A stretch of DNA of 64,000 nt from an uncultured Nitrospiraceae bacterium (GCA_964493915.1 CAZBQH010000200.1:12182-76181); one strand, 5' to 3'. Shown: positions 1 to 61,330, numbered from the stretch's first letter. Notes: generated by a model from the sequence alone, not told the origin. A program made the numbers and translations.

Positions 1-763
1 CCTCCGATCCGTAGATCTCGAATCCTGTGAAGCCTGGTTTGCTCGTCCAGCCTACCTCGATATAGCCGAGCGCGCCGCTCTTGAACTCGAGCATCAGTAT
101 GGCATTATCGTCTACCTCGATTTTCTTCATGAGCGTCTTGGCTTGTGCGTCAACGCGTGCAATAGGGCCGAGCAACCATAGGCACAGATCAATTGCATGA
201 ATGCCCATATCGAGCATAGCGCCGCCGCGGGCCATTTCTTTCTTATAGAACCAGTCCGATTTCGCCCAGCCGGGGTACGGCCCGCCATGCGCAAATCGCA
301 CACGAATCATGAAAGGTTTGCCGATCTGCTTTTTTTCGAGCATTTCCTTGCACCGGGCCGGTCCCTCCATGAAGCGGTGCGTAAAGCCGATCATGAGCTT
401 TTTACGGGTCTTCCGGGCCGCGGCAATCATGCGATCGGCCTCTACAATGCTCGTAGACATGGGCTTTTCACAAAGCACGTCACAGCCCACTTCGAGCGCA
501 TCGATAGTCTGTTGGGCGTGGTGCTTGTTTGGCGTACAAATGCTGACCACGTCCAGTCTTTCCTTGTTGAGCATCTCCTGATGGGTCTTGTATCCCTTCA
601 TATGGGGATAACGTTCCGACATCTCAGCGTGTCGCGCCTTGACCGGGTCGGCGAACGCCGCAAGCTCTACATTTGCATTGCGGGCATATCCCGGAAGATG
701 GCAGTGCTGCGCGATGGCCCCCGCTCCAATGACACCGACCCTGTATGTTTTTCCGTCGGCCAT
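1..763 (-). CDS. Gfo/Idh/MocA family oxidoreductase (C-terminal end beyond window edge)
   Basis: Not in the ORF track because the frame runs off the 5' edge of the window. Reverse-complement of 721-780 reads ggtaggagaaccgaaccATGgccgacggaaaaacatacagggtcggtgtcattggagcgggg = RBS + MADGKTYRVGVIGAG (Rossmann N-terminus typical of the family). The frame stays open to position 1 (…GWTSKPGFTGFEIYGSE). Confidence 0.6.
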   Translation of the reverse strand, partial: MADGKTYRVGVIGAGAIAQHCHLPGYARNANVELAAFADPVKARHAEMSERYPHMKGYKTHQEMLNKERLDVVSICTPNKHHAQQTIDALEVGCDVLCEKPMSTSIVEADRMIAAARKTRKKLMIGFTHRFMEGPARCKEMLEKKQIGKPFMIRVRFAHGGPYPGWAKSDWFYKKEMARGGAMLDMGIHAIDLCLWLLGPIARVDAQAKTLMKKIEVDDNAILMLEFKSGALGYIEVGWTSKPGFTGFEIYGSE

Positions 764-18670: not shown

Positions 18671-19936
18671 TTGACCCCCAAGAATGAAGCCGGTAAGAAG
18701 CAAGACACAGGCGGAAAAGGGCTTAGCCTTATTCGCAGTATTACAGGTCCATGGACTTGGGAGAACCTTTGGGGATGGCTGAAAATAATCCTCATCGTCC
18801 TTGTCATCCGATGGATCTGGTTCGAACCCTACAGCATCCCGTCCGGATCGATGGAACCCACCCTCCATGGAGATCCACGATTTCTTCGCGGAGACCGGGT
18901 CGTAGTGAACAAGTTCTGGTTCGGTCCTCGTATCCCCTTTACCAATAAACGCTTGTTCCGATGGCACGAGCCTGAACGGTGGGACATCGTCGTCTTTAAC
19001 TCACCCGAGCCGGACGCGCAACACAAGGTGCTCATCAAACGCGTCGTGGGCCTCCCAGGAGAACGGGTTCATATCGAGGGAGGCAGAGTCTACGTGAATG
19101 GGAAGCCCCTCGAGTTGCCCGAGGATATACAGCATGTGAGCTACACGTCTGCGCCCTCTATGAGGTCATTCGAGCGGTTGAGCGGCGGCGAGCTTAGGCT
19201 TCTCATGCTCCAGCATGAAATGCGGTACGGGATCCTGCCGGACGAGCGTTACAGCGTCGTGCCAGAGAACCATTACTTAGTGTTGGGCGACAACAGCGCC
19301 GACAGCAAGGACGGCCGGTATTTTGGATGGGTCCCCCACGAGAACCTGATAGGGCGGGCCTTTGCAATCTGGTGGCCTCTGAGCCACCGCCGCGATCTGA
19401 CTGGCTTCACCAACACTTGGTGGGGCATGGCATTGCTTCTCGGACTCCCCGCACTTTTGCTCCTCTATGAGGGATCTCGCGCCTTTTTCTGGGCGTCGTG
19501 GCGCGTCTGCTCCAACGATTTGCCGGGGGAGCTCCGCGAAGGCGAGCATATCCTCGTCAGTCGTATTGCGTTAGGTTTGCGGCTGCCGTTTTCGAGGCGG
19601 CGGATTATTCCGGGCCGTGGTTTACGCAGGGGGGAGACGGTGGTACATGTTTCAGAGCAAGACGGTTCGGGGCGGTCTCTGAAACTTTCGCGAGTCATTG
19701 CTGTTCCAGGCGAAACAGTCAATGCTCGACTTGATATGCCCTGCGTCGAGCGCAAAAAAAACTCCCAAATCGTCCGCGACGGATACTATCTCGTAACCGA
19801 CGGCAATCCGGCTGCCGGAACGGGTTGCGTCTCGAGCCTCGACCTGGTTGGAGTTGCACAGCTTGTCTGGTGGCCCTTGCACCGGCGTCGAAAGCTTGCA
19901 GCGCCTGGGGCTGCTAATTCCACACGGACTGCCTAG
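18671..19936 (+). CDS. lepB: signal peptidase I with an additional degenerate peptidase-like C-terminal domain
   Basis: 421 aa. The first half is canonical (SGSMEPTL catalytic Ser box, LIKRVVGLPGE Lys box, GDNSADSKDGRYFGW box). After a second TM (WWGMALLLGLPALLLLY) there is a second SPase-like repeat lacking both catalytic residues (CSNDLPGEL, LSRVIAVPGE). Confidence 0.75.
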   Translation: MTPKNEAGKKQDTGGKGLSLIRSITGPWTWENLWGWLKIILIVLVIRWIWFEPYSIPSGSMEPTLHGDPRFLRGDRVVVNKFWFGPRIPFTNKRLFRWHEPERWDIVVFNSPEPDAQHKVLIKRVVGLPGERVHIEGGRVYVNGKPLELPEDIQHVSYTSAPSMRSFERLSGGELRLLMLQHEMRYGILPDERYSVVPENHYLVLGDNSADSKDGRYFGWVPHENLIGRAFAIWWPLSHRRDLTGFTNTWWGMALLLGLPALLLLYEGSRAFFWASWRVCSNDLPGELREGEHILVSRIALGLRLPFSRRRIIPGRGLRRGETVVHVSEQDGSGRSLKLSRVIAVPGETVNARLDMPCVERKKNSQIVRDGYYLVTDGNPAAGTGCVSSLDLVGVAQLVWWPLHRRRKLAAPGAANSTRTA

Positions 19937-19937
19937 C

Positions 19938-20699
19938 GTGACCTGGAAAGCGAAGAGCGGCAAGCGCCGGGCGGCTGTTCCCAGAACGGGGCGCCGGGGC
20001 TTGGTTGTGCAGCTCGGTTGTGGTTTGCTCTTGCTCGGGGTTTTGTTCTGGTACTCGCGACAACTCGAAACCATCGAACCGGTTGAATTGCTGACCACAA
20101 TTCCCCTAGCCGTGTCTGTCGCCTTCGTTGTTCGGTGGATCGCGATCGAGCCATACAAGATCCCTTCCGCTTCAATGAGGCCGGCCCTCGAGCCCGGCGA
20201 CCGCATTTTCGTGAACAAATGGGTCTATGGGCTCCGCTTTCCACTTAACGGGATGCGCGTCCCTTTTACGACGCGCGGCGTCCGTTATGCGGCCCGCCGC
20301 TTGTGGCGGGGTCGACGGCCGGAACGGGGAGACATTGTTGTGTTTCGTACGGTGGAAGAAGGGGAAACACACGACATCTTGGTCAAGCGGGTCGTCGGGA
20401 AGCCGGGCGAACACATACTTATTCGAGACGGACGGATCCATGTAAATGGAACGCCTCTCGAGACGCCGCCTTCGATTGCCCGCAACTACTACACGGCGCC
20501 GCGCGGCTTTCCCGTCATGCACTACGGCATTTCCGGCGGGAAGACCTACTCGCTTGTCCCGCCGGACCATTATCTGCTCCTTGGCGACAACAGCGCAGCG
20601 AGTCGGGACGGCCGTCTCTTCGGCTGGGTACCTGATGAACATATCTTGGGGCGCGTCTGCGCTATCTGGTGGCCTATCCGCCGGTGGCGCCGTTTGTGA
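19938..20699 (+). CDS. lepB: signal peptidase I (second copy)
   Basis: The track ORF 19848..20699 overlaps the upstream gene out of frame. The in-frame GTG at 19938 lies 1 nt after the upstream TAG, giving VTWKAK…TM…IPSASMRPAL (Ser box), LVKRVVGKPGE (Lys box), GDNSAASRDGRLFGW. Confidence 0.75.
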   Translation: MTWKAKSGKRRAAVPRTGRRGLVVQLGCGLLLLGVLFWYSRQLETIEPVELLTTIPLAVSVAFVVRWIAIEPYKIPSASMRPALEPGDRIFVNKWVYGLRFPLNGMRVPFTTRGVRYAARRLWRGRRPERGDIVVFRTVEEGETHDILVKRVVGKPGEHILIRDGRIHVNGTPLETPPSIARNYYTAPRGFPVMHYGISGGKTYSLVPPDHYLLLGDNSAASRDGRLFGWVPDEHILGRVCAIWWPIRRWRRL

Positions 20700-33042: not shown

Positions 33043-33786
33043 TCAGTAATGCCGTCGCGTGTCCCAACGGCGTTGCAGGCGTGAAACGTCGCTGTATGGG
33101 TCTGGGGGTCTTGGCTTCGAGACGAAGAAGCGGTGCGTGAGAGCGCCGAAAGCGAATCCTCCGATGTGGGCCCACCAGGCGATACCTCCGCCCTCTTGGG
33201 GCGACATCAAAGACAACGATCCGCTGATGAATTGGGAGAAAAACCAAATCAGGATGAAAACAAGCGCAGACAGCTCAAAAAACACGGGGAAAAACAGGAT
33301 TGGGACGACGCAAATGACCTGTGCCCGGGGATAGAGAAAGAGGTAAGCTGCCAGAACGCCAGCGATGGCGCCTGATGCGCCGATCGCCGGCACGGTCGAC
33401 AAGGGAGTTGATATCATGTGGATGATGCCTGAAGCGATGCCGCACAGCAAGTAAAACAATAGGAACCGCAACGGCCCCATGCGATCCTCCACGTTGTCGC
33501 CGAATATCCACAAGGTCCACATATTTGCGATGATGTGAAACCAGCCTCCGTGGAGGAACATGCTCGTCAGAAAGGGCCAGTAATCATCGGCGGGAAAGCC
33601 GGCCCACACAGCCCAGTCCGGGTGAACATACCGTTTGGGCACGATCCCAAAAAAGTGCACAAGGCGAAGGAGTCTTTCCTGCGGAAGACCCAATTGGAAC
33701 ACAAACATAAATATGTTGACGCCGATCAGCGCCCACATAGCGACAGGCAGCCGCCGGCTCGGCACATTGTCGCGAATTGGAAACAT
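33043..33786 (-). CDS. rhomboid family intramembrane serine protease
   Basis: 247 aa. MFPIRDNVP start, GlpG-like core with the GASGAIAG catalytic Ser motif and a downstream AHIGGFAFG His. Six to seven TM segments. Confidence 0.8.
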   Translation of the reverse strand: MFPIRDNVPSRRLPVAMWALIGVNIFMFVFQLGLPQERLLRLVHFFGIVPKRYVHPDWAVWAGFPADDYWPFLTSMFLHGGWFHIIANMWTLWIFGDNVEDRMGPLRFLLFYLLCGIASGIIHMISTPLSTVPAIGASGAIAGVLAAYLFLYPRAQVICVVPILFFPVFFELSALVFILIWFFSQFISGSLSLMSPQEGGGIAWWAHIGGFAFGALTHRFFVSKPRPPDPYSDVSRLQRRWDTRRHY

Positions 33787-33831
33787 AACCTACTCCCGGC
33801 CTCGTCAAGGTTCTTATGTTGCAGTGCGCTG

Positions 33832-35490
33832 TTAGAACCCGTAGGGGCTGCTGCCGCCCGAGCTGTCGCTCGAGCCGCCGTATGTTCCGTACCCCCCGCC
33901 CTCGCTGTAGTCCGGGAGAATCGGCTGGGCGTTCGGATGACGGCTCTCATTCGAGCTTGTGACACGAATGGCGGGTTTGTCTTCGAAAGGGCACTTGTTC
34001 TCGCAGATGCCGCATCCAATGCACAGGGACGGGTCTACATGGGGTTGCTTGACTGTTTTCACGCTGCCATCGCGCATGGGGACCTGCGCCTCGATAAAAT
34101 AGATGGCCTTCGTCGGCAGGGGGCAATGCTCCTCGCAGACAATGCAGTCTCTGCCGTATGCGTAGGGCAGACAACGCGACGTATCAATAGACGCAAGCCC
34201 CAGCTTTACCTTCTGTTTCTCCTCCATGGAAAGGGGCTGGATGGCTTGCGTTGGGCACACTTGGCCGCAGAGGTTGCATTCATACGCACAGTAACCGATC
34301 TGGGGATCGAGACGCGGCGTCCATATGCCTTCAATGCCCGCCTCGAAAAGCGTCGGCTGCAAGCCATTGGTTGGGCAGACCCGCATACACAAACCGCATT
34401 GTATGCAGCGCTGGAGAAACTCGCGCTCTCCCCGTGCGCCAGGCGGGCGGATTAAATCCTTGTTGTAAGTTCGGGCTTGGGCTTGCGGGCTCAGCCGAAA
34501 AGCGAGCAGCGCTGCCAATCCCCCTGCCCCCGACGCGAGCATTGCGCGTTTTCCGAGGTCGAGCTTTGCTTTCGTGGGCGACTTAAACGGCGACCCGAAA
34601 CCAAAAGCCAACCCTTTCTCCGGGCAAGACGGCACGCAGTTCCAGCACATAAAGCATTCGGACGGCTGCCATTTGCCAGGCTTTTCCGGGGATGCTGCAC
34701 CTTGGCAAACGGCGGCGCACTCCCGGCATCCCGTGCAGGCGCCTTCGCCAGGCTTCAACCGAAGTACGGGGCGTCTGGCGACAAGACCCAGCAATGCCCC
34801 CAGGGGACAGATGTATCGGCACCAGAACCGCCTGCGAACAAGGTTCAACCCAAGTATGCCGATGAATACGCCGGCAACCAGCAGCGCGTTGCGAAAGGCT
34901 TGTCCCTTGACTGCAAACACCTGCTCGCGGAAAAAGCCATAGACCGGCTCCGTGATCGAGGTAATGTGAAAAGGTCCGATTGCTGGGTCCGATTGAAACA
35001 CGGCAGTGGACCCGTCTTCAATGGCGTACTGTGCAGCCGGGAGCACAAAGAACGTTAAGCTGCGATAGGTCAACGAAATGGGATCAAGCACCCCAAACCA
35101 ATGGACCCCGAAGACCGCCATCACGAGCAACGCCACGAGTAGATAGTACTTGGCTCTTTGCCACTTCGAGAAACGCTCGATTCGCCGCCGCCGGAACCAG
35201 CTCATCATGGTGTTCAGCGTGCCGAGAGGGCAGACCCACCCGCAGAACACCCGGCCGAACAGAGCGGTAACGGCCAAAGTCAGCACAGCGAGCAGCGCCC
35301 CTATTGCCACGGTGTGGGCCGATAGCAGCGTTCCCAGCACGATGAGGGGGTCCGCGTCGAAGAAAAGCTGCATCCCGCGGCTGGCTGTAGTGGAATCGTT
35401 CCTTGCTGCCCCTACGACAAGCCAGAAGAACAACAGGAGGAAGCTCCCTTGGACGAGGCGCCGAATCCATCTTATCCAGACTGGGCTCAC
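33832..35490 (-). CDS. NapH/MauN/NosR-type membrane polyferredoxin (4Fe-4S)
   Basis: 552 aa. Several N-terminal TM helices carry the two CxxxCP motifs typical of NapH-type proteins (FCGWVCPLG, CRYICPLG). The C-terminal half carries at least four CxxCxxCxxxCP ferredoxin motifs and a Gly/Ser-rich tail. Confidence 0.75.
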   Translation of the reverse strand: MSPVWIRWIRRLVQGSFLLLFFWLVVGAARNDSTTASRGMQLFFDADPLIVLGTLLSAHTVAIGALLAVLTLAVTALFGRVFCGWVCPLGTLNTMMSWFRRRRIERFSKWQRAKYYLLVALLVMAVFGVHWFGVLDPISLTYRSLTFFVLPAAQYAIEDGSTAVFQSDPAIGPFHITSITEPVYGFFREQVFAVKGQAFRNALLVAGVFIGILGLNLVRRRFWCRYICPLGALLGLVARRPVLRLKPGEGACTGCRECAAVCQGAASPEKPGKWQPSECFMCWNCVPSCPEKGLAFGFGSPFKSPTKAKLDLGKRAMLASGAGGLAALLAFRLSPQAQARTYNKDLIRPPGARGEREFLQRCIQCGLCMRVCPTNGLQPTLFEAGIEGIWTPRLDPQIGYCAYECNLCGQVCPTQAIQPLSMEEKQKVKLGLASIDTSRCLPYAYGRDCIVCEEHCPLPTKAIYFIEAQVPMRDGSVKTVKQPHVDPSLCIGCGICENKCPFEDKPAIRVTSSNESRHPNAQPILPDYSEGGGYGTYGGSSDSSGGSSPYGF

Positions 35491-36425
35491 GCGAGCGCGA
35501 TTTCCTTATAGCGAAGCTTCTTGTAATCGATTTGGCCAAGCCCTGCATTGTGACCGGACACGATGGTTCCGATTTCCTGAGGGTTGTAGCCCAAAAGAGA
35601 CGCGCCGAAGGCGTCGAGCGCGACGATATCCGTCCCTGCAACGACCGTATCCGCTCGTTTCACATCGGCCAGGTTGCCTCCTGTGGGGCCGTTGGCCGTC
35701 AACAGCCGGATGGCGTCAAGCACACAGAGTCTTGGCTTCATGAACAGCGAGATATCTGTAATAGTGGTGGGGAGATCCTGGTGGAATTTCGCCCGGTTGT
35801 CGACAACGCCCATGTAGTTTTTCATACACAGCGTAACCGTTGTGGCGCTGTGATGTTTGGCAATAGGCACGTTGATCACCAGGTCACAGTCCGTGATCTC
35901 CGTGTAGACAGGGATTGATTTGAGGCCCTTGCCGCCGATCTCGGTCTCGCGGAAGCGGCTCGGGTCGATATAGACCACCTCGGCGCCGGCCTCTTTTGCA
36001 GCCTGCTCGATACCGCTACGGGGGTAGGTTTTTGTAATCTCATTGCAGGGGTGATCGCCGACCTTCACGTTTTTGGCACCCGCCTTGTAGCACAGCTCGA
36101 CAAGTGCTGCAACAACGGCCGGGTTGGTCGTGGCCGCTTGTTCAGGTCTGCGATCCCACGCAATGTTCGGCTTCACCCAGACCACGTCGCCCTGGTTTAC
36201 GAAACGCTTCATCCCGCCCAGCGCGTCCATCGCCGCTACGGTCAGCTTCCGGGCCATCTCGGCGACGCCCTCATCTTCTACAGATGCGCCTTTCCAACGG
36301 CAAACGGCCATGTCAAGGGGCGCATCTACTGCTTCCTGAGCGGATACGGCCTGACTGGCCAGAGTCATTGCACCGCTCGCCGCGACCGTCTGTTTGAGGA
36401 AATCCCGTCGTGTTTTCCTGGACAT
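35487..36425 (-). CDS. Tat-exported DUF362 domain protein
   Basis: 312 aa. Twin-arginine signal MSRKTRRDFLKQTVAASGAMTLASQAVSAQE. The remainder resembles DUF362, which is often found beside ferredoxins. It overlaps the polyferredoxin start by 4 nt. Confidence 0.6.
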   Translation of the reverse strand: MSRKTRRDFLKQTVAASGAMTLASQAVSAQEAVDAPLDMAVCRWKGASVEDEGVAEMARKLTVAAMDALGGMKRFVNQGDVVWVKPNIAWDRRPEQAATTNPAVVAALVELCYKAGAKNVKVGDHPCNEITKTYPRSGIEQAAKEAGAEVVYIDPSRFRETEIGGKGLKSIPVYTEITDCDLVINVPIAKHHSATTVTLCMKNYMGVVDNRAKFHQDLPTTITDISLFMKPRLCVLDAIRLLTANGPTGGNLADVKRADTVVAGTDIVALDAFGASLLGYNPQEIGTIVSGHNAGLGQIDYKKLRYKEIALA

Positions 36426-36568: not shown

Positions 36569-37513
36569 ATGCCCAGGGGGCCGTTTCAAGGGCGGCAGAA
36601 CAGGCAACAGGCAGGATCTCAATTCTTGTTGCGCAAATCAACTTGGCGGCCTGCTTTGCTCGGTGCGGTTGCGCAAACGCTTACTGGCGCGCCGCTGCAA
36701 CCACATGCTATCGTCGTGAATGGGAATGCAACGACCTTGACACCCTACGTAAGCATACACAACGGCCGACAGACCGCGCTGGTGCACCATTCATACGCGG
36801 AACACGTCGCGGCCGCTTTCTTTGAAGGAAAAGCATGCATTCCCGTGCGCAAGGGCGGGCGCAATGCCCTTGTTTTTCGATTTCCACTCGGCAGCGGCGA
36901 AACCGGGATTATCCGGACGTGCAGACGGGGCGGGCTCGTGCGCCGTTTGTTCAAAGACGCCTACCCTTTTTCTAACCGCCCCTTGCGCGAGTTCCGCGTT
37001 CACCTCTATGCCTATAGCAGGAAACTGCCCGTTCCTGAACCCTTGGGCGTCTTCTGGGAGCGAAAAGGGATCGCATTCCGAGGCGCCGTTGCCACCCGGG
37101 AGATCGAGGCAGTAACCTTGTTTACTGCTCTTAAGCGTCTGCAGAGCAACGCCGGCCGTTTCGAGCCGCTGCTCATTCACGCTGGACGCGCTGTCCGCCA
37201 CATGCACGAGCTTGGCATCTGTCACGCCGACCTTCAGCTTGGCAACATTCTCGTTACGCACACCGGGATCCATCTTATCGACCTCGACAAGGCCCGCGTT
37301 TTCCCGAAACTCTCGACACTGCGTCGGGCGCGCAACCTCTTGCGTTTGCGCCGATCGCTCGGGAAAAACGGTTTCCCGCCGGAGCTTTTTGAGCGCATTC
37401 TCGACGGTTACGGTGCCGATGTCATTCCTCATTGGCTCGATGTGGCCTATCGCGTTAAGGGCATGCTCTCCGACGGCATCACAAGGCGGAAACGGAGGCG
37501 GAATGGTCGATGA
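36569..37513 (+). CDS. lipopolysaccharide kinase (Kdo/WaaP/InaA) family protein
   Basis: Catalytic loop HADLQLGNILV and DLDKAR. The N-terminal 50 aa of the track ORF look non-coding, so the likely true start is an internal GTG at 36716. Its stop overlaps the next paralog's start. Confidence 0.5.
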   Translation: MPRGPFQGRQNRQQAGSQFLLRKSTWRPALLGAVAQTLTGAPLQPHAIVVNGNATTLTPYVSIHNGRQTALVHHSYAEHVAAAFFEGKACIPVRKGGRNALVFRFPLGSGETGIIRTCRRGGLVRRLFKDAYPFSNRPLREFRVHLYAYSRKLPVPEPLGVFWERKGIAFRGAVATREIEAVTLFTALKRLQSNAGRFEPLLIHAGRAVRHMHELGICHADLQLGNILVTHTGIHLIDLDKARVFPKLSTLRRARNLLRLRRSLGKNGFPPELFERILDGYGADVIPHWLDVAYRVKGMLSDGITRRKRRRNGR

Positions 37514-38279
37514 CGCTATCCGCGCCGAGCGCGCCGGGGGATGGCTTGTATACTATCGAGCCGATTGCTCCCTGGATAGGATCTTTGCTGCAGCAGCATC
37601 CCCAGGCGAGGTGTTGAAACAGTCTTCGAAGACGCGAACGCGTCGCGTCGGGGAGTGGGTGGTGAAGGAAAGCCGGTTCAACTGCGGTCGCGGTCTCCTG
37701 AAACACACCTTCAGACGCGAGCGATATCGTCGCGCTTGGCGCGCCGCCTTGTTCCTTCACGCGCACGGCATCAGCGTGCCCGCCCCTGTGGCGCTGATCG
37801 AACGCAGCGCGGGCCCCGTTGTCCTGGGTAACGTCTTCATTACCGAATACCTTGACGGACACCACAACGTTGAAGATTATGCCCGAGGCCTGTTGGGCGC
37901 ACGCCAGGGGGATGTCGACGTCTTTCTGGCTGGCATCGCGGAGGCGGTGAACGCCCTATGCGCATCCGGCGCCTATCATGCCGATCTTTCCGGCAAGAAC
38001 ATCTACACCAAAGACGGCAGCCGCTTCTGGTTTATTGATCTCGATGAAGTCGTATTGAACCGGCCGTATACCGACAAACAACGCCTCGAAAATCACGCCC
38101 AGTTGTACGACTCTTTCTGCGACATCTGGGACTCGGATGTCCTTGAACCGTTCATAGTCCGGATGCTGCCCGCGTGCTATGATGCGCAAGCATGGTTGAG
38201 CAGAGTCCGCCGCGCCCAGAAACAGAGGCGCGACCGTCAGATTGCGATCTGGCGCAGACAGGGCAAACCTAGCTTCTGA
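37503..38279 (+). CDS. lipopolysaccharide kinase (Kdo/WaaP/InaA) family protein, second paralog
   Basis: The track ORF 37212.. overlaps the previous gene. ATG 37503 (MVDDAIRAERAGGW…) sits in ATGGTCGATGA, overlapping the upstream stop. Motifs are HADLSGKNIY and FIDLDE. Confidence 0.55.
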   Translation: MVDDAIRAERAGGWLVYYRADCSLDRIFAAAASPGEVLKQSSKTRTRRVGEWVVKESRFNCGRGLLKHTFRRERYRRAWRAALFLHAHGISVPAPVALIERSAGPVVLGNVFITEYLDGHHNVEDYARGLLGARQGDVDVFLAGIAEAVNALCASGAYHADLSGKNIYTKDGSRFWFIDLDEVVLNRPYTDKQRLENHAQLYDSFCDIWDSDVLEPFIVRMLPACYDAQAWLSRVRRAQKQRRDRQIAIWRRQGKPSF

Positions 38280-49138: not shown

Positions 49139-51562
49139 TCACGTCAGCTTTTCGTAAGGCCACATGTCGGTGCCGCCGTCCAACACGCGCACATCGGGAA
49201 AGTCCGCAGCCTTCAGAATCAGGGCCGCCTCGTAGCCCCGAAGCGAGATGTTGCAGAACGTGACGATGGTCTTGGACTTGTCTAGCTCGTGGAGACGCCT
49301 GCGAAGCACTCCCAAGGGAATGTTAATCGAGTTGGGAAGCCTGATCTCCTCGAACTCTTCCTGCGACCGCACATCCAAGAGAGTCACGGCCGTTCCGCCG
49401 GCGATCATTGCGCGATGGACCTCCATCGGCGTGATGCCCGTCAAGTAACCGTCAAGCTTGTTGCGGGCCACGTTCGCGGCCGTAATCAGGTTATCCATGG
49501 CCGGCGAGTACGGAGGCGCATAGCATAGGTCGGCGTTGGCAAGCTGGTCCACGGTCATTCCCGCCGCAATGGCCATAGCCGCGACATCGACGCGCTTGGC
49601 GCCGTCGCCCGGCCCCGTCACCTGAGCGCCCAGCACTTTGCGTGTGGCCGCATCCACAACAAGTTTGAGCATGAGTGGCTGCGCATCTGGCATGAAGTGG
49701 GCTTTGTCGGGAGCAGGGACCAGCACGGCGACGGCGTCGTAGCCGAGTGCCTGGGCCGAGGCCTCGGTCAACCCAGTGCGCCCCACGCAATACTCGAAAA
49801 CCTTGCAGATCGTGCTGCCGAGTATCCCGGGGAACTTCTCGCGGCCTCCACATAGGTTGACGGCAGCCACGCGGCCTTGCTTATTGGCCGTCGAGCCGAG
49901 AGGCATGTAGATGGGCCTTCTCGTCACGATGTCCCTGCATTCCACGCAGTCGCCTGCTGCATAGATGTCCGGGTCGCTTGTGCACATGAATTCGTCGACT
50001 TTGACGGCGCCCGTTTCGCCTATGTCAAGGCCGGCTGCCCGTGCAAGTCCTACGGAGGGCTGAACGCCGACAGCCATGATCACCATGTCGGCTGAGAGCT
50101 TGCCGGTTTGGGTCACAACCTGCGTAGACCATTCCTCGCCTTCAATAGCGGTGACTTTCGTGCCCGTCAAGACCCTGACACCGTTGGCTTCCATGTGTCT
50201 CTCAACCAGCTTGGCCATTTCCCAATCAAGCATGCCCAGAACCTGCGGCATCATCTCGACCATGCTGACACGGCATCCTGATTCCACCAACGCCTCCGTT
50301 GCTTCGACCCCGATAAGTCCTCCGCCTACAATTACAACGTCGCGCGCTTTGCCCTCACTGAGCATGGAACGGATGCCTTCGGCATCATGGACCCCGTGCA
50401 GCGTAAAGACATTAGGGAGATCGATTCCCGGCAAAGGAGGCTTGACAGGCGTTGCGCCCGTAGCCAAAACCAGTTTGTCATAGTCGAGCCAGGCGTCTTC
50501 CGATGTCAGGAGATTGCGTACAAGGATGCGCTTGTTTTCTCGATCGATCTCGATGGCTTCCGTCTCGTTGTGCACATGCACGTTTTTCACTTTCTGAAAG
50601 AAGACCGGGTCGCGCACCGCTCCTGCGGCGGTCGACATCAACTCGCGCTGTGAACGGACCATTCCTGAGACGTAGTAGGGAAGACCGCAACCCGCATAGG
50701 ACAAGAAACGCCCCCTTTCGATCACTGTAACTTCGGTGTCCGGACGAATACGGATAATCTTGGATGCCACTTTGGGGCCTGCCGTGACCCCACCGACGAT
50801 CACCACCTTAAGAGGCTGTCTCGCTTTGCTTTCTTCTTCAGCTTTTGCCGCCGCAGGTTCCGCCGCAGCAAGCAGAACCGAAAACTCAGCGCCTCCAAGA
50901 TCAGACGTCCCGACCGTGATCGATCCGCCCGCCGTCTCGAACACAGTTTTGGCGAAAGCCAGCCCCAGGCCGACCCCGGGCCGCGCAGAACCTTCTGCAG
51001 TTGCACTGCGAAAAAAAGGTTCGAAGATATGCTCTCGTTCCTCCGCCGGGATTCCTATGCCGGAGTCGTCAACTGTGAGACAGACGAAATTGCCTGGCGC
51101 CCGTGCAAGATTCAGCCGGACCCGCCCATGTTCAGGCGTGTACTTGACAGCGTTGCCGACCAAGGCCGCCACGGCTTCCGTCAGCGCAGGCGCATCGCCC
51201 TTCACGAAAACATCGCCCGCCTCGTTTACCGCCTCGAAGTCAATGCCTTCCTCAGCAGCTTTCTGAAGAAACAACGCATGAACGCGGTGGAGGAGTTGGC
51301 CCAGATTGCAGATGCTCTGCGTCGCGGACGGAGAGTCCAGCTCTCGTACGACATACAGCATCCGCTGCACCGCTGCGATCGCTTCGTCGCAGCGCGCGTT
51401 GGCCCGCTCCACCAGAGTGCGTTGCTTTGGCGTCATCGCGCCGGCATACCCCCCGAGGAGCGTCCGCAAATGGCTGCTCACCGCGCTCAGGGGCGCCTGC
51501 AACTGGTGTGCAATCAGACCTGCTGACCGAATGGCTGTGTCGTGCGGTTTGCTCTGACTCAT
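49139..51562 (-). CDS. fusion protein: histidine-kinase core (HisKA+HATPase) + CoA-disulfide reductase-like FAD/NAD(P) oxidoreductase + rhodanese domain
   Basis: 807 aa. Residues about 1-240 carry the H-box AHQLQAPLS, N-box LVGNAVKYT, G1 DDSGIGIP, F-box FEPFF and G2 GVGLGLAFAK, with no TM or sensor domain. Residues about 250-700 carry VVIVGGVTAGPKVASK (FAD), the redox Cys in SYAGCGLPY, and VVIVGGGLIGVE (NAD). Residues about 700-807 form a rhodanese domain with the active Cys in TFCNISLRG. Confidence 0.7.
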   Translation of the reverse strand: MSQSKPHDTAIRSAGLIAHQLQAPLSAVSSHLRTLLGGYAGAMTPKQRTLVERANARCDEAIAAVQRMLYVVRELDSPSATQSICNLGQLLHRVHALFLQKAAEEGIDFEAVNEAGDVFVKGDAPALTEAVAALVGNAVKYTPEHGRVRLNLARAPGNFVCLTVDDSGIGIPAEEREHIFEPFFRSATAEGSARPGVGLGLAFAKTVFETAGGSITVGTSDLGGAEFSVLLAAAEPAAAKAEEESKARQPLKVVIVGGVTAGPKVASKIIRIRPDTEVTVIERGRFLSYAGCGLPYYVSGMVRSQRELMSTAAGAVRDPVFFQKVKNVHVHNETEAIEIDRENKRILVRNLLTSEDAWLDYDKLVLATGATPVKPPLPGIDLPNVFTLHGVHDAEGIRSMLSEGKARDVVIVGGGLIGVEATEALVESGCRVSMVEMMPQVLGMLDWEMAKLVERHMEANGVRVLTGTKVTAIEGEEWSTQVVTQTGKLSADMVIMAVGVQPSVGLARAAGLDIGETGAVKVDEFMCTSDPDIYAAGDCVECRDIVTRRPIYMPLGSTANKQGRVAAVNLCGGREKFPGILGSTICKVFEYCVGRTGLTEASAQALGYDAVAVLVPAPDKAHFMPDAQPLMLKLVVDAATRKVLGAQVTGPGDGAKRVDVAAMAIAAGMTVDQLANADLCYAPPYSPAMDNLITAANVARNKLDGYLTGITPMEVHRAMIAGGTAVTLLDVRSQEEFEEIRLPNSINIPLGVLRRRLHELDKSKTIVTFCNISLRGYEAALILKAADFPDVRVLDGGTDMWPYEKLT

Positions 51563-55871: not shown

Positions 55872-55972
55872 CCAATCGCGGGCATACTCCTTGCCGCGCG
55901 TTCTTAAAACAGCGATATGCTACTATGGTGTTCGATGTCGGGGCGATAGCTGCCGGCAAGGAAGGATCGGCC

Positions 55973-57811
55973 ATGGTTGCGAACAGACAAGCTCTTATGT
56001 CTTTGCGTCTTGCTCTATCTCGTCGGGAAAAGGCATTGTCGCTCGCCCAGGAATCCAAGGAGGCCTTGACCGCGGGCCATATTGACAAAGCGCGCCATGA
56101 CATGCTGCAAGCCTTTTACTCGGGCCATCTCCAATCCGCCGAAAACCGCCTGCGCGACCTGCGCCAGGAGCACGCGAAGCGAATCGCCGAACTCGACACC
56201 GTTCTTGAGGAACTGCAAACACGTCAGAAAGAGGTGCAGGAAGGTGCAGCTTCCGGCCTTGTGAGGGTTTCTGAAGTGAATCGCCGGCATCGCAAACTTG
56301 CGAAACGAATCGGCGAGCTGAAAGAAGAAGCGGCCTTCGAGCGGCGCTTAGTTGAAGCCGATTCTCCTGATGCAGTGGGCGGTTTTATCGATATGCCTCT
56401 CGATGACTACGCCGCTGAGGCACCGTCGGGTCCTGCGGCCTATTCCACGGAGGAATGGCTGTTCACATGCGTGCTGTCCCTGCTCATGCCCTTCGCCTTG
56501 CTCTTGCCGTGGGTCATCGTACTCGGGGTCTCGTGGCGTCTGAGCGACTTGCCGGCCTTTCTTGAGATGGTGGGGTTGGAAGAGGTGCCGGAAACCGCTC
56601 GTTTCGTGTGGGCTGTGTATGCATTACTTCCTTTGGTTGGGTTGCCTTTCGCATTGTGGCGCAACCTCCAGAAGTCAGGTGCTTGGTTGATAGTCGTAGG
56701 CGCCGCCTGTACAGGCGCCGTTGTCACTCCGCTGGCAGCTATAGGCATCAATCCCAACATCGAGGCGTCCATCGATCCAATCCAACTTTTTGCGGGATTG
56801 CGAATCGGATCTCTATCTTACCTCGGCGGCGCGGTTCTGATGATGCTCTTGGGCGCACGCCGGATACGGTTGAGCAAAGGACCCCTGAAGTCTTCCTGGA
56901 AAGGCGTAGTGGTCCTTGTGGTCTCGGCTACGGTTCTTCTCCTGTTGGCAGGCGCCCTTTTCTCGACGGCGCCCGGTCACGCCTGGATTGCCATGGAAGC
57001 GGGCCCTGCACGAGAAGCAGGGCGGAGCGTGCGGCTTCACTTCGAAAACACCGGCACGCATACGGCTACCGTGCATCTGCCTTGGCCGGAGAATCGCGCG
57101 GCCGTAATCGAGGCGGGCCAGGAGAAACGTCTTTTCGGCGTGACAGTATGGGTGCGTGAACGGGGCGAGCGCGATTTCCATATGTATCCGCACTCGGATG
57201 TCTGCTGGGATTTTGGTAGTGTGCCTGCCCCCGAGAACAACGGCTTTCAACTCGAGCACGGCGTTTCCGTGCAGGCTCAATTTCACTTGGGCAGGTTGGA
57301 GACCGAGGGGATAGACGCCCTGCAGGTACGTTTTCGTCTGACCCGGGGCGACGGCCACCTTCTTCAATCTCTAGATGTTGACGTTCCGGAAATCAGTGCC
57401 GCAAGCGCCCGGCCTGCACCCCTCGCGGGGATGCCGGACATTGCTTCTGCACCCCAGCCTCCGCAATCGGAGACGCTTTCCCCGCCGCCATCCGCTATCG
57501 CAACAGAACAAACCGGCGCCTCTTCTGCAGAAACCGGAGACAGGGGATCGCCCGTGTGGTCCGTCGCTTTCAAAGGCACCATTGGAAACAACGCGATCTT
57601 AGCGATACGCGAAGCGGCTGATGGGAAAGTCGAGTCGCGGTCCGTCGCGGCCGGCGACACGGCAACTGGAGACTGGTTGGTCGAGTCTATTGAAGCGTCC
57701 GGTGCTGAAGTTGTGCTTCGCAATCGCTATACCGGGAAGCGTGTCACGTTGAAGCGGGGAGCTGGAGAAAGCCCCTTGCCCGACACAAAAGCTGCCTCGA
57801 GCGGCGGGTAG
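55973..57811 (+). CDS. hypothetical membrane protein with N-terminal coiled coil
   Basis: The track starts at 55925. ATG 55973 has AAGGAAGGA 6 nt upstream. About 120 aa of coiled coil, then a block of several TM helices, then a C-terminal soluble region that is Pro/Ser-rich near the end. Confidence 0.45.
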   Translation: MVANRQALMSLRLALSRREKALSLAQESKEALTAGHIDKARHDMLQAFYSGHLQSAENRLRDLRQEHAKRIAELDTVLEELQTRQKEVQEGAASGLVRVSEVNRRHRKLAKRIGELKEEAAFERRLVEADSPDAVGGFIDMPLDDYAAEAPSGPAAYSTEEWLFTCVLSLLMPFALLLPWVIVLGVSWRLSDLPAFLEMVGLEEVPETARFVWAVYALLPLVGLPFALWRNLQKSGAWLIVVGAACTGAVVTPLAAIGINPNIEASIDPIQLFAGLRIGSLSYLGGAVLMMLLGARRIRLSKGPLKSSWKGVVVLVVSATVLLLLAGALFSTAPGHAWIAMEAGPAREAGRSVRLHFENTGTHTATVHLPWPENRAAVIEAGQEKRLFGVTVWVRERGERDFHMYPHSDVCWDFGSVPAPENNGFQLEHGVSVQAQFHLGRLETEGIDALQVRFRLTRGDGHLLQSLDVDVPEISAASARPAPLAGMPDIASAPQPPQSETLSPPPSAIATEQTGASSAETGDRGSPVWSVAFKGTIGNNAILAIREAADGKVESRSVAAGDTATGDWLVESIEASGAEVVLRNRYTGKRVTLKRGAGESPLPDTKAASSGG

Positions 57812-57827
57812 CGTTTCGCAGACGGCC

Positions 57828-59894
57828 CTAGCTCGACGGCGTAGGCATCCCGTCCATCGCCCCAGTGTCTGGGAATACGGTGATTGCGGCCGCGAGGCAG
57901 CATGCTGCATTCAGTGTGTCCGGGTACACGGTGGGCGCCAGAGGATCAGCCTGGGCGGCTGCCCCTGCCCCTGACCCTCTAGCCATGGCGTCTCGCATGT
58001 ACGGCCCAAGACGGGCGAGTTCCTTCGGTTCGTCCCGCCAGAGCATTGCCAGGTTCAGCAGAGTCTTGGCCGTTTCATGGGGCGCCATCTCGTCGAGGCC
58101 CTCGAGAGCCTTCTCGGCAAGGTGTTCCCATGGCGCCGATCGAGGGCGGCCGGGCCGGGCGACATCCGCGGCCCAGTAGTCAAGAGCGCCTGGAACCGTC
58201 CAATGTCCCGTGCCGTCTAGGCAATGGTAGTTGATAAGCGCGCGTAACTCGCTGCGTCTTTCATTCCATTCCTCTTGCTTGAAGCCAAGGGCGTCGGCGA
58301 TTTCGATGGCCGCGCTGATTCCGATGTAGGTAACAGCGACCAGGCCGTTGCTCTGAGCGTCGCGCCAACGTGCAGGGTCGAACGAGTGAAGAGGCATGCG
58401 GGTCCTTAGGTCGCACCAGCGGACCAGAAAGTCTGCACCTTGCTGAACGCTCGGCCAGACACCCTCAAGAAAGGCCCGCCGCCGTTCTTTATCTAAGCGG
58501 CGGCTGTGCTCGGAAATGTCCCAGAGCGTCCAGGCAGTGCCGTCTACCTCGAGTACCGGATAAGGCAACGCCTCCGTGCCGTCGGCGTAGACCGTGGCCG
58601 GCACAGAGCCGGCAGGTCGGCCCGGTTGTGTCGTTTGGCGCACAAGCCCGGCCCCGAAAAGGACATGCCGCTCTGCAAGCTCGGGGAATCCCGCTTTATC
58701 GAGGGCCAACGTGATCCATGGGGCATGCCGCGCGAAGTGCATCGCCAACGGCGGCTGAGGAGTAGGGTTGCGCACAACAGCGCCCGTTTCCCGATCCATG
58801 GCGCTTAACAGCGTCATCAAGCAGCCTTCGGCCATGGCGCGAATGGCAGGATCCGGCGAGGCAGGCAGTGTCGCCTTGGCCTGAACCGCCGCGATGCGGC
58901 TTCGGGCGTCCTGCAAAAGACCAGCCCAACCTTGCACACAGGCTGCGGCCAGCCGCTCCGATACGGTCTCCCATGTTGGGCCAAAGGCCGTGTAGACGGT
59001 CGCTTCGCTCAGGGAACTGCCCGAATCGTCCTCGCGCTGCGTGGGCGGGATTGCTATGACTGAACTGCAGGTGCCCACCGCAGCCTGATCCTTTGCCAGC
59101 TTGCCCGCACTCGCCTGCGTGTAGGGCGATGCAGGCCCGGCGTCTGGTCCGCACTGGAACGCCTCCGCACCTGCGGAGGACGTATAGGCGATCCACACTC
59201 CCTCGCCGAAGGCGCGCCACGCTTCGCTTTCTGCCTTAGTCCTGATTAGCTCTCTGGCCTGTTGCCAGGACCTGCTGTTCAGGTCCTCGGGCCGGAAGTG
59301 GCAGATGCTCGTCCCAGTCCCCGTTGTGAAGACTGCAAAATCGTTCGCGCTGTCGAAAGCCCAGTCAGCGAGCGGCCATTCAGGGAGAACACGTGTGGCG
59401 GGGCAAAAGTTGGCGATCCAAAAGAACGTCTGGACCGGCCGGGCCGACTGTACGCGGATATGCACCCCGAACACGTCGTGCTCGGGGTGTACAAGAAGCT
59501 CCTGGGTGGCCGTAAAGTCCGGGTCCTTTGACCGCGTTGTCACCCGGAAGACGTAACCTGCCCGATCGGTTGACGCCGTTGCGTCGCCTGTGACCCCATT
59601 CAGCCAAAGGGTATTGTCGTCTATCCGCAGACCCCAGAACAGGCCATCTGCCGGCAGGGCGCCATACTGGGGCAGATTGCGGGAACGGGTGCGATAGCTA
59701 AGCTGGTCGCTGAGACCGGGGCTCGGCCAGCGGCACACTGTGATCCGCCCTGCGCCGTTCGCGCTAAGGGTCAACCGCCCATTGCCAAGAACAATCGCAG
59801 TATCCGGCGGACCAAAGATTTCTTCGAGAACGCCATACGACGGGGGTGCCGCGGCGAATGCCGCAAAAAAGAGGAGAGCAAGCGGCAATATCAC
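57828..59894 (-). CDS. secreted hypothetical protein, possible (alpha/alpha)6-barrel glycoside-hydrolase-like fold
   Basis: 688 aa. Signal peptide MILPLALLFFAAFAAAPPSYG, an N-terminal beta-rich region and a C-terminal helical region. Family assignment is tentative. Its start overlaps the upstream gene by 4 nt. Confidence 0.4.
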   Translation of the reverse strand: MILPLALLFFAAFAAAPPSYGVLEEIFGPPDTAIVLGNGRLTLSANGAGRITVCRWPSPGLSDQLSYRTRSRNLPQYGALPADGLFWGLRIDDNTLWLNGVTGDATASTDRAGYVFRVTTRSKDPDFTATQELLVHPEHDVFGVHIRVQSARPVQTFFWIANFCPATRVLPEWPLADWAFDSANDFAVFTTGTGTSICHFRPEDLNSRSWQQARELIRTKAESEAWRAFGEGVWIAYTSSAGAEAFQCGPDAGPASPYTQASAGKLAKDQAAVGTCSSVIAIPPTQREDDSGSSLSEATVYTAFGPTWETVSERLAAACVQGWAGLLQDARSRIAAVQAKATLPASPDPAIRAMAEGCLMTLLSAMDRETGAVVRNPTPQPPLAMHFARHAPWITLALDKAGFPELAERHVLFGAGLVRQTTQPGRPAGSVPATVYADGTEALPYPVLEVDGTAWTLWDISEHSRRLDKERRRAFLEGVWPSVQQGADFLVRWCDLRTRMPLHSFDPARWRDAQSNGLVAVTYIGISAAIEIADALGFKQEEWNERRSELRALINYHCLDGTGHWTVPGALDYWAADVARPGRPRSAPWEHLAEKALEGLDEMAPHETAKTLLNLAMLWRDEPKELARLGPYMRDAMARGSGAGAAAQADPLAPTVYPDTLNAACCLAAAITVFPDTGAMDGMPTPSS

Positions 59895-61330
59895 GGTTTT
59901 TCCCCGCTTGAATGTCTCGAGTGTGATGCAAGATGCCCCGTGAAATCGAGGGAATCCTTCTCTACGGTTGCGGCGATTTCGAGAGCGCCCATCTGACCCA
60001 GGGCGCGAAACTTCGGGATGACCTTCTCCTCAATCTCCTGTACGCCTGTTTCAGGCAAAAGCTGGCTCAGAGCAGCATGGCGCGCCAACTCTGAGAAAAC
60101 CTCGGAAGTTTCCTTCCAATCCACGCGCAATGCTACATCCGCATCAATCTGTTCAAGAACAGGCTCATTTCGTGCAAGCTCCGCCATCAAAGGCTCCTGG
60201 CTCGCCGCGAGCCAATACTCCTCCTTGTTACACAGGCACAATAGCAAGGCCTCGCCAATGAGCGGCGCAACGACTCCGGGCGCTCCATGCCACTCGTGGG
60301 GCAGAGCGTCCAGTTCAGCCGCAAGCGGCGCCAATGGATGATCACCAACGCCGGATTGGACCCGGCGCATCAACAGCGCCGCCTTTGGAACAGGCGTGGT
60401 CTGCGACGTGTCCACGCCCGTAATACCGAACGAGCACTCCGCCACGCCTTGGTCCCAACCCTCGGGCAGGCCTTGAATGTCCCATGAAGCCCACATCGCC
60501 CACGCCGCCTTTACGACGGCATCCACGACGCTGCAATCGCGGAAAGGCTCGTACAGAATCTGTACAACCGATGCGATGTCGCGCCACCGTGTCGCGGTGA
60601 CGGTGAGAAGTGCGGAGGAGGGCCAAGGCTTTGTCATCGTAAGGGGGACTTCGCGGTCCGTACAGACGCCCGTAATCTGGCCCGTGACGGGGAGGCCCTC
60701 TGCCGCGCGAACCACGAGTTTTGTTTTCGGTGTTTGTTCCCAGCGAAACGAAACTGTGTCATGCTGTTTCGGACGCTCCGCCAAGTAAGCCGGCGCGCTC
60801 AAACACTGCTTGACATACCTTTCAGACTCAGAGAATATAAGCGATCCGTCGCGCCACGCATAGTACAAGCCGCGAAACGTGGGGAGGGAACTGCCGGTTG
60901 GCGCAGGCCCAACCAACCGTTTCAGGAAAAGAACGGAACGGAGCAGAAGCCCAGGGCGCACGCAGGCGCCTGACTGGTTCTCTGACCCAGCGATAAGAAG
61001 CCTCGGGCCGAGCCATAGACTCCAACGAGAAGGGGTGGGCCGGATTCCATAGGCCAAACGGACGGCCCGTTCGAAATCGCGCAATGGCGCGGGAGCTTCT
61101 TTGTTGAAGGCGCGTACAGCCTCGGTGGCAGCGGCCATACGCCAGAATCGGGGGAAGTCGTGGGCAGCGAAAGACCATGCAGCGTCTCGAGGCGCATACA
61201 ACGCGCCTGGCGCCGTTTTCAGGCCCGCGTCAACATGATTGAAGAGAAATACCGCAGCTATGCATGCTGCTAAGAACAGCCACCGCCGCGCCGTACGCGC
61301 CATTCTCGACGTCGCCTCGCGCAATCGCAA
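59891..61330 (-). CDS. hypothetical membrane-anchored protein
   Basis: 479 aa. N-terminal TM (WLFLAACIAAVFLF), then a large soluble domain. No recognisable catalytic motif. Confidence 0.45.
   Translation of the reverse strand: MRLREATSRMARTARRWLFLAACIAAVFLFNHVDAGLKTAPGALYAPRDAAWSFAAHDFPRFWRMAAATEAVRAFNKEAPAPLRDFERAVRLAYGIRPTPSRWSLWLGPRLLIAGSENQSGACVRPGLLLRSVLFLKRLVGPAPTGSSLPTFRGLYYAWRDGSLIFSESERYVKQCLSAPAYLAERPKQHDTVSFRWEQTPKTKLVVRAAEGLPVTGQITGVCTDREVPLTMTKPWPSSALLTVTATRWRDIASVVQILYEPFRDCSVVDAVVKAAWAMWASWDIQGLPEGWDQGVAECSFGITGVDTSQTTPVPKAALLMRRVQSGVGDHPLAPLAAELDALPHEWHGAPGVVAPLIGEALLLCLCNKEEYWLAASQEPLMAELARNEPVLEQIDADVALRVDWKETSEVFSELARHAALSQLLPETGVQEIEEKVIPKFRALGQMGALEIAATVEKDSLDFTGHLASHSRHSSGEKP

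Follow-up and report, generated by a model that had tools for sequence, protein, structure and literature searches.

A conserved gene pair for a DUF362 protein and a polytopic polyferredoxin in an uncultured Nitrospiraceae bacterium, a candidate periplasm-facing oxidoreductase

In this study, we analyzed a stretch of 64,000 nucleotides (nt) from an uncultured Nitrospiraceae bacterium (GCA_964493915.1 CAZBQH010000200.1:12182-76181), hereafter the window, and focused on the genes for a DUF362 protein and a polytopic polyferredoxin (PFD), which lie next to each other on the minus strand and are followed by a gene for a rhomboid protease. Genomic comparisons showed that DUF362 is a near-obligate partner of this polyferredoxin family in several phyla. 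The two proteins probably, although with considerable doubt, constitute a membrane-seated, periplasm-facing two-subunit oxidoreductase with a link to the quinone pool; translational coupling of the two genes is part of this reading and shares its strength. A preliminary description, made from the sequence alone, had regarded the pair as a periplasm-facing electron-transfer system of unknown substrate, and this view is supported by the conservation of the pair and by the twin-arginine translocation (Tat) signal of the DUF362 protein.

Conservation of the DUF362-polyferredoxin pair

To assess the conservation of the pair, we searched for related loci from both of its sides. On the DUF362 side, we scanned a single genome of each species and obtained 80 loci. 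They are spread over Hydrogenedentota, Planctomycetota, Verrucomicrobiota, Eisenbacteria and the FCB group, and the nearest matches point to Hydrogenedentota as the phylum of the window itself. PFD was found by tblastn directly downstream of DUF362 at 77 of them, and the other three stop at a contig edge after DUF362. Two of the loci (L074 and L075, contig CAYPGE010000004.1, Pirellulaceae) lie in opposite orientation and share 20.9 kb at 100% identity, in all likelihood a palindrome of the assembly. They were counted as one locus, which left 79 distinct loci including 76 informative ones, and the pair is present at all 76.

The search on the PFD side was seeded with the experimentally tested sequence of the delta proteobacterium MLMS-1 described below, and a metagenome scan from this second clade gave 80 loci. 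In this clade, which comprises Nitrospirota and Desulfobulbales, DUF362 is located upstream on the same strand at 65 of the 66 loci with at least 900 nt of upstream sequence. A PFD 99% identical to that of MLMS-1 is preceded, at a distance of 14 nt, by a gene for a 301-amino-acid (aa) DUF362 protein with a twin-arginine (RR) signal. Likewise, a 303-aa RR-signal DUF362 gene, with a product starting MDRRNFLL, lies directly upstream of PFD in the complete genome of Desulfurivibrio alkaliphilus. In a Dissulfurispiraceae metagenome-assembled genome (MAG), DUF362 is found 3.3 kb upstream of PFD (L083:2647-6001), and an insertion with toxin-antitoxin pairs of the HigB/HTH and BrnT/CopG kinds, together with three small enzyme genes, lies between them. 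Insertions of this sort, about 1.5 kb long, also separate the two genes at three metagenome loci (L104, L117 and L126). The pair is therefore conserved in relatives from several phyla (76/76 and 65/66 loci). The preliminary description had presented DUF362 as a domain frequently found beside ferredoxins; the linkage was confirmed, but its extent had been understated, the partner being essentially obligate here. We found no report of the DUF362-PFD pairing in the searchable literature.

In all contexts considered, the pair stands alone between unrelated genes. ORF (open reading frame) clustering across 80 loci revealed no third conserved gene, the other large clusters being shadow ORFs inside the two genes. 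In the window, the cassette is surrounded by a sulfatase gene, a GH42-like gene, Kdo-family kinase genes and an apiosidase-like gene, and in D. alkaliphilus by arginase, ThiI and PLD-like genes. No nap, nos, mau, lar or tat genes were detected among the scanned predicted genes of the window. Because the cassette stands alone and is carried by organisms with very different lifestyles, a general periplasmic function would fit better than a specific catabolic pathway.

Concerning the gene layout, the three ORFs of the minus strand were found where the preliminary description had placed them (Table 1), with the spacing that it had given: the start of PFD overlaps the DUF362 stop codon by 4 nt (GTGA), and 45 nt separate the PFD stop codon from the rhomboid start. 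The public gene call for PFD is 533 aa long, i.e., 19 codons shorter than the ORF considered here (window 35434-35490, minus strand), and it drops the conserved residues W8, R10 and Q14 as well as the N-terminal part of the first transmembrane (TM) helix (TM1, aa 11-29). Since PFD homologues align from residue 5-9 onward, W8, R10 and Q14 are conserved and the GTG codon at 35490 is the earliest possible start of the ORF, the overlapping start is the correct one. Judged by this alignment, it is the sole start fitting the homologues, and the public start should be shifted 19 codons upstream.

Architecture and kinship of the polyferredoxin

Profile searches related both halves of PFD to proteins from the periplasmic nitrate reductase system and its relatives, the matching models being those of the NapH/MauN and MauM/NapG types. 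NapH models matched the N-terminal half (NF007013, 109.4 bits for a cutoff of 234; TIGR02163, 108.9 bits for a cutoff of 213) and NapG models matched aa 313-513 (NF007012, 101.3 bits for a cutoff of 269; TIGR00397, 78.4 bits for a cutoff of 178.85), all of them scoring below cutoff. By these matches, PFD is a NapH-NapG fusion, NapH-like in its architecture and not a NapH equivalog. The preliminary description had called the protein NapH-like, which holds for the N-terminal half, whereas the whole protein is a fusion with a fifth TM helix of the Tat type. The two CX3CP motifs that it had reported in the TM region were found (CGWVCP and CRYICP). Its estimate of four or more ferredoxin clusters can be made exact: six four-Cys cluster motifs lie at aa 252, 279, 362, 401, 440/449 and 490. 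The NapG-like domain and TM5 had been overlooked. The cysteines are strongly conserved, since all 28 of them are kept in 67-68 of 68 orthologues, and the 16 located in the NapG-like domain are invariant among the 68.

The membrane topology was predicted from hydropathy and charge distribution. Hydropathy peaks were located at aa 11-29, 61-79, 117-135, 200-218 and 316-334, the fifth being weaker, and they agree with the helices of an AlphaFold2 (AF2) model at aa 3-30, 48-78, 109-126, 202-218 and 314-331. The charges of the N-terminus, the loops and the region after TM4 (Table 1) obey the positive-inside rule in the window PFD, as do the values averaged over 68 orthologues. From this, the cytoplasm is predicted to contain both CX3CP motifs as well as the first two clusters. 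The orientation of the iron-sulfur (Fe-S) clusters, which the preliminary description had left to a topology prediction, would then be two clusters in the cytoplasm and four in the periplasm.

The kinship of PFD with an experimentally studied protein gives clues regarding its biogenesis. A polytopic polyferredoxin identified by bioinformatics was tested by Tooke et al. (2017, eLife, PMC5449189) as Q1NSB0 of MLMS-1 and explicitly described as a NapH-NapG fusion. There, four TM helices depend on the Sec pathway for insertion, and the Tat pathway inserts TM5, a helix of low hydrophobicity with a twin-arginine motif before it and positive charges after it; the low hydrophobicity and the following charges govern the hand-over from Sec to Tat (PMC5449189). 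That paper deals with biogenesis alone, and neither DUF362 nor a function of the protein is mentioned (PMC5449189). Using the sequence of the TM region given in its supplement, we found by BLASTP that the window PFD shares 40% identity with Q1NSB0 over 329 aa (E=4e-57). The window sequence DLGKRAML aligned with DLGRRRLL of Q1NSB0, placing K314-R315 at the position of the R-R pair. Among 68 close orthologues, 47 carry RR and 21, like the window PFD, carry KR before TM5, the second R being invariant, and RR is invariant in the Nitrospirota/Desulfobulbales clade. Natural K-R Tat signals are known in other proteins. The mean hydropathy of TM5 is 1.57, compared with 2.0-2.4 for TM1-4, and positive charges are found at or after the end of this helix (R331, nearly invariant, and R339), with a mean of 2.2 K+R in the next 15 residues. 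The 40% identity, the aligned Tat-type motif and the weakly hydrophobic TM5 with its following charges make the membership of the window PFD in the dual Sec/Tat polytopic polyferredoxin family well supported at the sequence level. By analogy with the MLMS-1 protein, its K-R variant would also depend on Tat. The two proteins have in common the five TM helices, the NapH-like N-terminal and NapG-like C-terminal parts, the Tat-type motif just ahead of a TM5 that is weakly hydrophobic and has positive charges after it, and an upstream DUF362 partner gene. They differ in the K-R pair and in a clade-specific Gly/Ser/Tyr tail of the window PFD.

This C-terminal tail (EGGGYGTYGGSSDSSGGSSPYGF) is indeed rich in Gly and Ser, as previously described. 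Its length varies from 0 to 49 aa among orthologues, and it usually ends with a Tyr-containing motif such as (D/S/N)PY(G) (loci L001-L080). Tyr is found within the last five residues in 51 of 61 orthologue tails, and PY within the last six residues in 40/68. The PFD of the Nitrospirota/Desulfobulbales clade carries no tail and ends directly after NQLLL. The tail may act as a tethered docking peptide. Of note, TM5 of the window PFD is followed by the sequence AQA|R (34471-34479, boundary at aa 338-340), which resembles a signal peptidase I site. Cleavage at this position would free the NapG-like domain from the NapH part, but an AxA pattern after TM5 is not conserved in PFD orthologues.

The DUF362 protein and the LarA fold

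The product of the DUF362 gene matched the Pfam profile PF04015 over positions 1-199 of 200 (E=2.6e-52), with 178.2 bits for a gathering threshold of 24, which confirms its family assignment. The family matches at this locus lie well outside what chance would give. Its N-terminus, MSRKTRRDFLK, contains a perfect S/T-R-R-x-F-L-K motif. The h-region of the signal is rich in Ala, Gly, Ser and Thr and weakly hydrophobic, and signal peptidase I is likely to cut near VSA|QE. The TIGR01409 TAT_signal model scored 18.5 bits (cutoff 16.7). R6, R7 and F9 are invariant among 25 DUF362 orthologues, and RR is present in 120 of 124 DUF362 partner proteins of both clades. The signal region has a low predicted local distance difference test (pLDDT) score in the AF2 model of the protein. 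The Tat signal proposed in the preliminary description (RRDFLK) is thus canonical and conserved, and the DUF362 protein of this organism is predicted from the motif to be a Tat substrate. In one orthologue (P0077, aa about 20-45), the RR signal is followed by a lipobox, LGAGC, and there is a long linker of Ser/Thr/Ala, which suggests a Tat-exported lipoprotein form of the DUF362 subunit.

A set of residues is conserved in the mature part of the protein. At least 97% of the 124 partners keep K85, N87, D124, K190, H192, K202, N203, G206, R211 and H215, as well as D237, R240, GPxGG (246-250), D254, D266 and D271. A single Cys (C112) is conserved across the same partners and, because of this, the DUF362 protein itself lacks an Fe-S site. 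Relatives were then sought among 1.84 billion representatives clustered at 50% identity, which gave 9,376 clusters with E<=1e-3, of which 871 reach E<=1e-30. Of the top 149 representatives, 128 are full-length, and a signal motif with RR or KR was seen in 115 of these. All 146 aligned representatives have K190, H192, K202 and G206, and 143 have H215.

No functional study of DUF362 or PF04015 was found in the searchable literature. Other proteins with the same Pfam domain nevertheless show that both an Fe-S association and an extracytoplasmic location recur: cytoplasmic DUF362 proteins (e.g., R5WQE2) contain a nested di-cluster, 2x[4Fe-4S], ferredoxin domain (PMC7955657), and extracellular CBM9-DUF362-dockerin fusions occur (PMC5742341). 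Given the nested domain on the one hand and the PFD partner on the other, DUF362 would be linked to Fe-S clusters in cis elsewhere (PMC7955657) and in trans here, where they are provided by a membrane protein.

Structural modelling gave a further clue. The AF2 model of the DUF362 protein was confident (pLDDT 89), and all 16 Foldseek hits at E<=1e-3 belong to the LarA family; as modelled, the fold is of the type of the cofactor-binding N-terminal domain of LarA. DUF362 and this LarA domain (Pfam DUF2088) are both placed in the Pfam clan CL0471 (PMC11770544); in LarA, it is this N-terminal half that binds the cofactor (PMC12611868). At the sequence level, the Lar_N (PF09861) and LarA_C (PF21113) models gave no match to the DUF362 protein at E<=10, and a PDB sequence search with the DUF362 profile gave no hit at E<=1. 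The DUF362 protein does not have the length for a LarA_C domain and differs from LarA in having no counterpart of its C-terminal substrate domain, as well as in its predicted export by Tat and in its obligate pairing with an Fe-S protein, a pairing that implies net electron transfer instead of redox-neutral racemisation. No larB, larC or larE gene was seen among the scanned predicted genes of the 64-kb window or near locus L050, the Thermogutta locus considered below.

In LarA, His108 and His174 are catalytic, Lys184 tethers the cofactor and His200 is a nickel ligand. The invariant DUF362 motif KHH(192)-x9-K(202)-x3-G(206)-x8-H(215) resembles EPH(174)-x9-K(184)-x4-G(189)-x10-H(200) of LarA, and we compared the two families using LarA sequences obtained via a LarA homologue in locus L050. 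MAFFT, run in three modes, aligned KHH with EPH174, placing H192 on H174. The Pfam DUF362 profile matched LarA weakly (E=0.054), in a register consistent with the H/K/G/H correspondence. With a profile of diverse representatives against the LarA N-terminal domain alone, hhalign placed H192, K202, G206 and H215 on H174, K184, G189 and H200, without reaching significance (E=0.14); in the same non-significant run, position 125, which is N in most orthologues, fell on H108. The orthologue alignment A1 gave just a spurious 38-column match when aligned by hhalign with three LarA sequences, hmmsearch with two DUF362 profiles found nothing meaningful in LarA, and against full-length LarA hhalign favoured DUF362 aa 35-146 on the C-terminal domain, with a probability below 1%. 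In these other profile runs, the registers differed from the H/K/G/H one and were equally insignificant. Since just one profile setup gave the H/K/H register, we treat the equivalence of H192, K202 and H215 to His174, Lys184 and His200 of LarA as a hypothesis. Of note, locus L050 of a Thermogutta MAG carries a genuine LarA homologue 4.3 kb downstream of its DUF362-PFD cassette (L050:15258-16550, minus strand), which matches Lar_N and LarA_C and scores 574 bits against PDB 9eia. We did not retain it as linked to the cassette: an elongation factor G (EF-G) gene intervenes, larB, larC and larE are missing nearby, and the proximity is probably a coincidence.

The resemblance to LarA leads to a speculative proposal that we regard as improbable. 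The DUF362 protein would keep the LarA pocket and bind a hydride cofactor of the nickel-pincer type or a related one derived from nicotinic acid. In the periplasm, two-electron hydride chemistry on a substrate resembling a hydroxy acid or a sugar would thereby be coupled to the Fe-S chain, which carries single electrons, and to the quinone pool. Tat export would be needed because the cofactor would be bound in the cytoplasm. If true, the LarA/DUF362 clan would gain its first extracytoplasmic member linked to a respiratory chain, and a chemistry would be assigned to a family of about 9,000 clusters at 50% identity. New protein scaffolds using the nickel-pincer cofactor are actively sought (PMC13524815), which makes the question of the DUF362 cofactor timely.

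Candidate mechanism, alternatives and neighbouring genes

In the mechanism that we propose, Sec would insert TM1-4 of PFD, i.e., the NapH part with its two CX3CP motifs and cytoplasmic di-cluster domain, while the four-cluster NapG-like domain would fold and receive its clusters in the cytoplasm. Tat would then recognise K314-R315 and the weakly hydrophobic TM5 and translocate the NapG-like domain, leaving TM5 in the membrane as an anchor. The DUF362 protein would also fold on the cytoplasmic side, probably enclosing a cofactor that is not Fe-S in its invariant His/Lys/His/Asp pocket, be exported by Tat through its TRRDFLK signal, be cleaved near VSA|QE, and dock on the periplasmic Fe-S domain of PFD. 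The NapH-like module would exchange electrons with menaquinol/menaquinone, and the four periplasmic [4Fe-4S] clusters would link it to the active site of DUF362, where a periplasmic substrate would be reduced, or oxidised if the chain were reversed.

This scheme follows the NapGH-type modules, which act as menaquinol dehydrogenases on behalf of periplasmic reductases exported by Tat (PMC5928378): in the model proposed for them, menaquinol is oxidised by NapH, and the electrons go on to NapG and from there to the reductase (PMC5928378, PMC5449189). PFD resembles NapGH of Escherichia coli and Wolinella succinogenes, and the related NosGH and MauMN, in a NapH module that combines four TM helices, two CX3CP motifs and a pair of cytoplasmic clusters, as far as the second-hand statements on NapH topology in PMC5449189 and PMC5928378 go, in its predicted periplasmic four-cluster NapG part, and in a Tat-exported partner that is here a candidate catalytic subunit. 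It differs from them in that NapH and NapG form one polypeptide, with the NapG signal peptide turned into TM5, in that it scores below the NapH and NapG family cutoffs, in the lack of nap, nos and mau genes among the scanned window genes, and in having DUF362 as its partner in place of a molybdo- or copper enzyme. A similar logic, in which a quinol-linked membrane module feeds a cofactor-containing, Tat-exported periplasmic module, occurs in split form in MsrPQ and in fused form in Sco3746, discussed beside PFD in PMC5449189; the folds and cofactors are unrelated, with haem b and the molybdenum cofactor there and Fe-S clusters and DUF362 here. The polyferredoxin is thus a further member of an experimentally anchored family. 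What would be new is a NapGH-type arrangement with fused Fe-S subunits and a kind of catalytic partner not previously linked to respiratory chains.

Several points weigh against this interpretation. The DUF362 protein has no recognisable redox-cofactor motif and no Fe-S-type set of cysteines, and apart from a weak TAT_signal hit it matches no other Pfam family at E<=10; for these reasons it could be non-catalytic. No conserved neighbours of the cassette hint at a substrate. In the tested homologue, replacement of R-R by K-K abolished export (PMC5449189), and the window PFD has K-R. The AF2 model of PFD is poor (pLDDT 62.5), Foldseek searches of the PDB with this model returned nothing at E<=1e-3, and sequence searches of the PDB with PFD returned just generic ferredoxin domains, with no solved structure of NapH or NapG for comparison. 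The quinol site of NapH is itself a proposal that no structure backs. Finally, the binding of DUF362 to PFD and the role of quinol as the electron source are both inferred.

Two other readings of the pair, neither of them likely, were considered. PFD could belong to a maturation or maintenance system, in which it would provide the periplasm with electrons of low potential for the assembly, activation or repair of a protein or cofactor, with DUF362 as client or accessory factor. Helper roles of this kind have precedents: MauM/MauN serve methylamine dehydrogenase, NosR serves N2O reductase and CcoG acts in copper delivery; NosR and RdhC have the four-TM/CX3CP module in common with NapH (PMC5928378), and the models that match PFD include MauM/NapG and NapH/MauN. 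A stand-alone pair without substrate-specific neighbours, found in organisms of very different lifestyles, would also suit a housekeeping role. However, no candidate for a client enzyme is conserved beside the pair at more than 140 loci, and the strongly conserved polar pocket and enzyme-type fold of DUF362 are more like those of a catalytic subunit than of a chaperone, so that we regard this explanation as rather unlikely. We give slightly less credit still to an electron export across the membrane that bypasses quinones: a cytoplasmic donor (ferredoxin or NAD(P)H-linked) would reduce the two cytoplasmic clusters of the NapH part, and the CX3CP cysteines would relay the electrons over the bilayer to the clusters in the periplasm and to DUF362. 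The two fully conserved [4Fe-4S] clusters and both CX3CP motifs on the predicted cytoplasmic face would be well placed for such a route, and in W. succinogenes the first CX3CP motif of NapH is needed for interaction with the cytoplasmic NapF (PMC5928378), but the TM helices of PFD contain no haem ligands or other cofactor sites in their sequence that would bridge the bilayer, and quinol oxidation is the accepted model for NapGH (PMC5928378, PMC5449189).

The title of the preliminary description implied a module with the rhomboid protease in it. The gene is genuine (PF01694, E=3.7e-37), lies on the same strand 45 nt downstream of PFD, and is possibly co-transcribed with it in the window genome, as no terminator-like site was found in the gap. 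In a three-gene module, the protease would process DUF362 or PFD, for example at TM5, where the AQA|R sequence mentioned above is found, although this AxA-like motif is not conserved. No rhomboid homologue was present at any of the 79 distinct related loci (flanks of up to 10 kb on each side), nor in the D. alkaliphilus, MLMS-1-like and Dissulfurispiraceae contexts. We therefore rejected the rhomboid as a module member; this lack of conservation effectively refutes the three-gene module, which appears very improbable, and the protease is an ordinary, unrelated neighbour.

If the two-subunit oxidoreductase reading holds, the polytopic polyferredoxin family, known solely as a model of Sec/Tat insertion, gains a near-obligate DUF362 partner, including that of the very PFD tested by Tooke et al., and can be treated as a two-subunit enzyme. 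DUF362 would for its part obtain a first concrete context, as a protein predicted to be periplasmic and wired to a NapGH-type Fe-S chain, and a testable link to nickel-pincer cofactors.

Table 1. Features of the DUF362-PFD locus, in nucleotide positions of the window; residues are those of the protein named.
Feature	Residues	Position	Strand	Remarks
DUF362 gene		35487..36425	minus	312 aa + stop; predicted Tat-exported soluble periplasmic protein, candidate catalytic subunit
Tat signal peptide (predicted), DUF362	1-29	36339..36425	minus	TRRDFLK at aa 5-11 (nt 36393-36413); TIGR01409
Core motif H192-x9-K202-x3-G206-x8-H215, DUF362	192-215	35781..35852	minus	candidate cofactor or active site
PFD gene		33832..35490	minus	552 aa + stop; GTG start
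NapH-like module, PFD	1-290	34621..35490	minus	TM1-TM4, two CX3CP, two [4Fe-4S] motifs
CX3CP motif 1, CGWVCP, PFD	83-88	35227-35244	minus	
CX3CP motif 2, CRYICP, PFD	224-229	34804-34821	minus	
Predicted cytoplasmic [4Fe-4S] motifs, PFD	252-262, 279-289		minus	sequence motif
Internal Tat-type motif DLGKRAML and TM5, PFD	311-334	34489..34560	minus	alignment to MLMS-1 PFD DLGRRRLL
NapG-like domain, PFD	348-520	33931..34449	minus	four [4Fe-4S] motifs; predicted periplasmic
Gly/Ser/Tyr low-complexity tail ending PYGF, PFD	521-552	33835..33930	minus	clade-specific
Charges of N-terminus, PFD				K+R 2, D+E 0; predicted cytoplasm
Charges of loop 1-2, PFD				K+R 1, D+E 3; predicted outside
Charges of loop 2-3, PFD				K+R 9, D+E 1; predicted cytoplasm
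Charges of loop 3-4, PFD				K+R 3, D+E 6; predicted outside
Charges of region after TM4, PFD				K+R 15, D+E 6; predicted cytoplasm
Rhomboid intramembrane serine protease gene		33043..33786	minus	PF01694; GASG and H motifs present; neighbour, outside the module

Other genes of the window were recorded in passing. Two tandem genes for Kdo/WaaP-family lipopolysaccharide kinases are divergent from the cassette (36569-38279, plus strand); as listed, their ORFs overlap, and the second gene therefore probably starts later. Four large ORFs of 628, 688, 479 and 260 aa (55925-61330 and 63211-63993) gave no Pfam match at E<=1e-5. Genes for signal peptidase I (Peptidase_S26) occur twice in succession at 18671-20699 (plus strand), the first encoding an unusually long protein of 421 aa. 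Finally, an 807-aa protein encoded at 49139-51562 (minus strand) combines in an unusual manner an N-terminal HATPase_c domain, i.e., an ATPase domain of the histidine-kinase type, with a pyridine-nucleotide-disulfide oxidoreductase and a C-terminal rhodanese domain.

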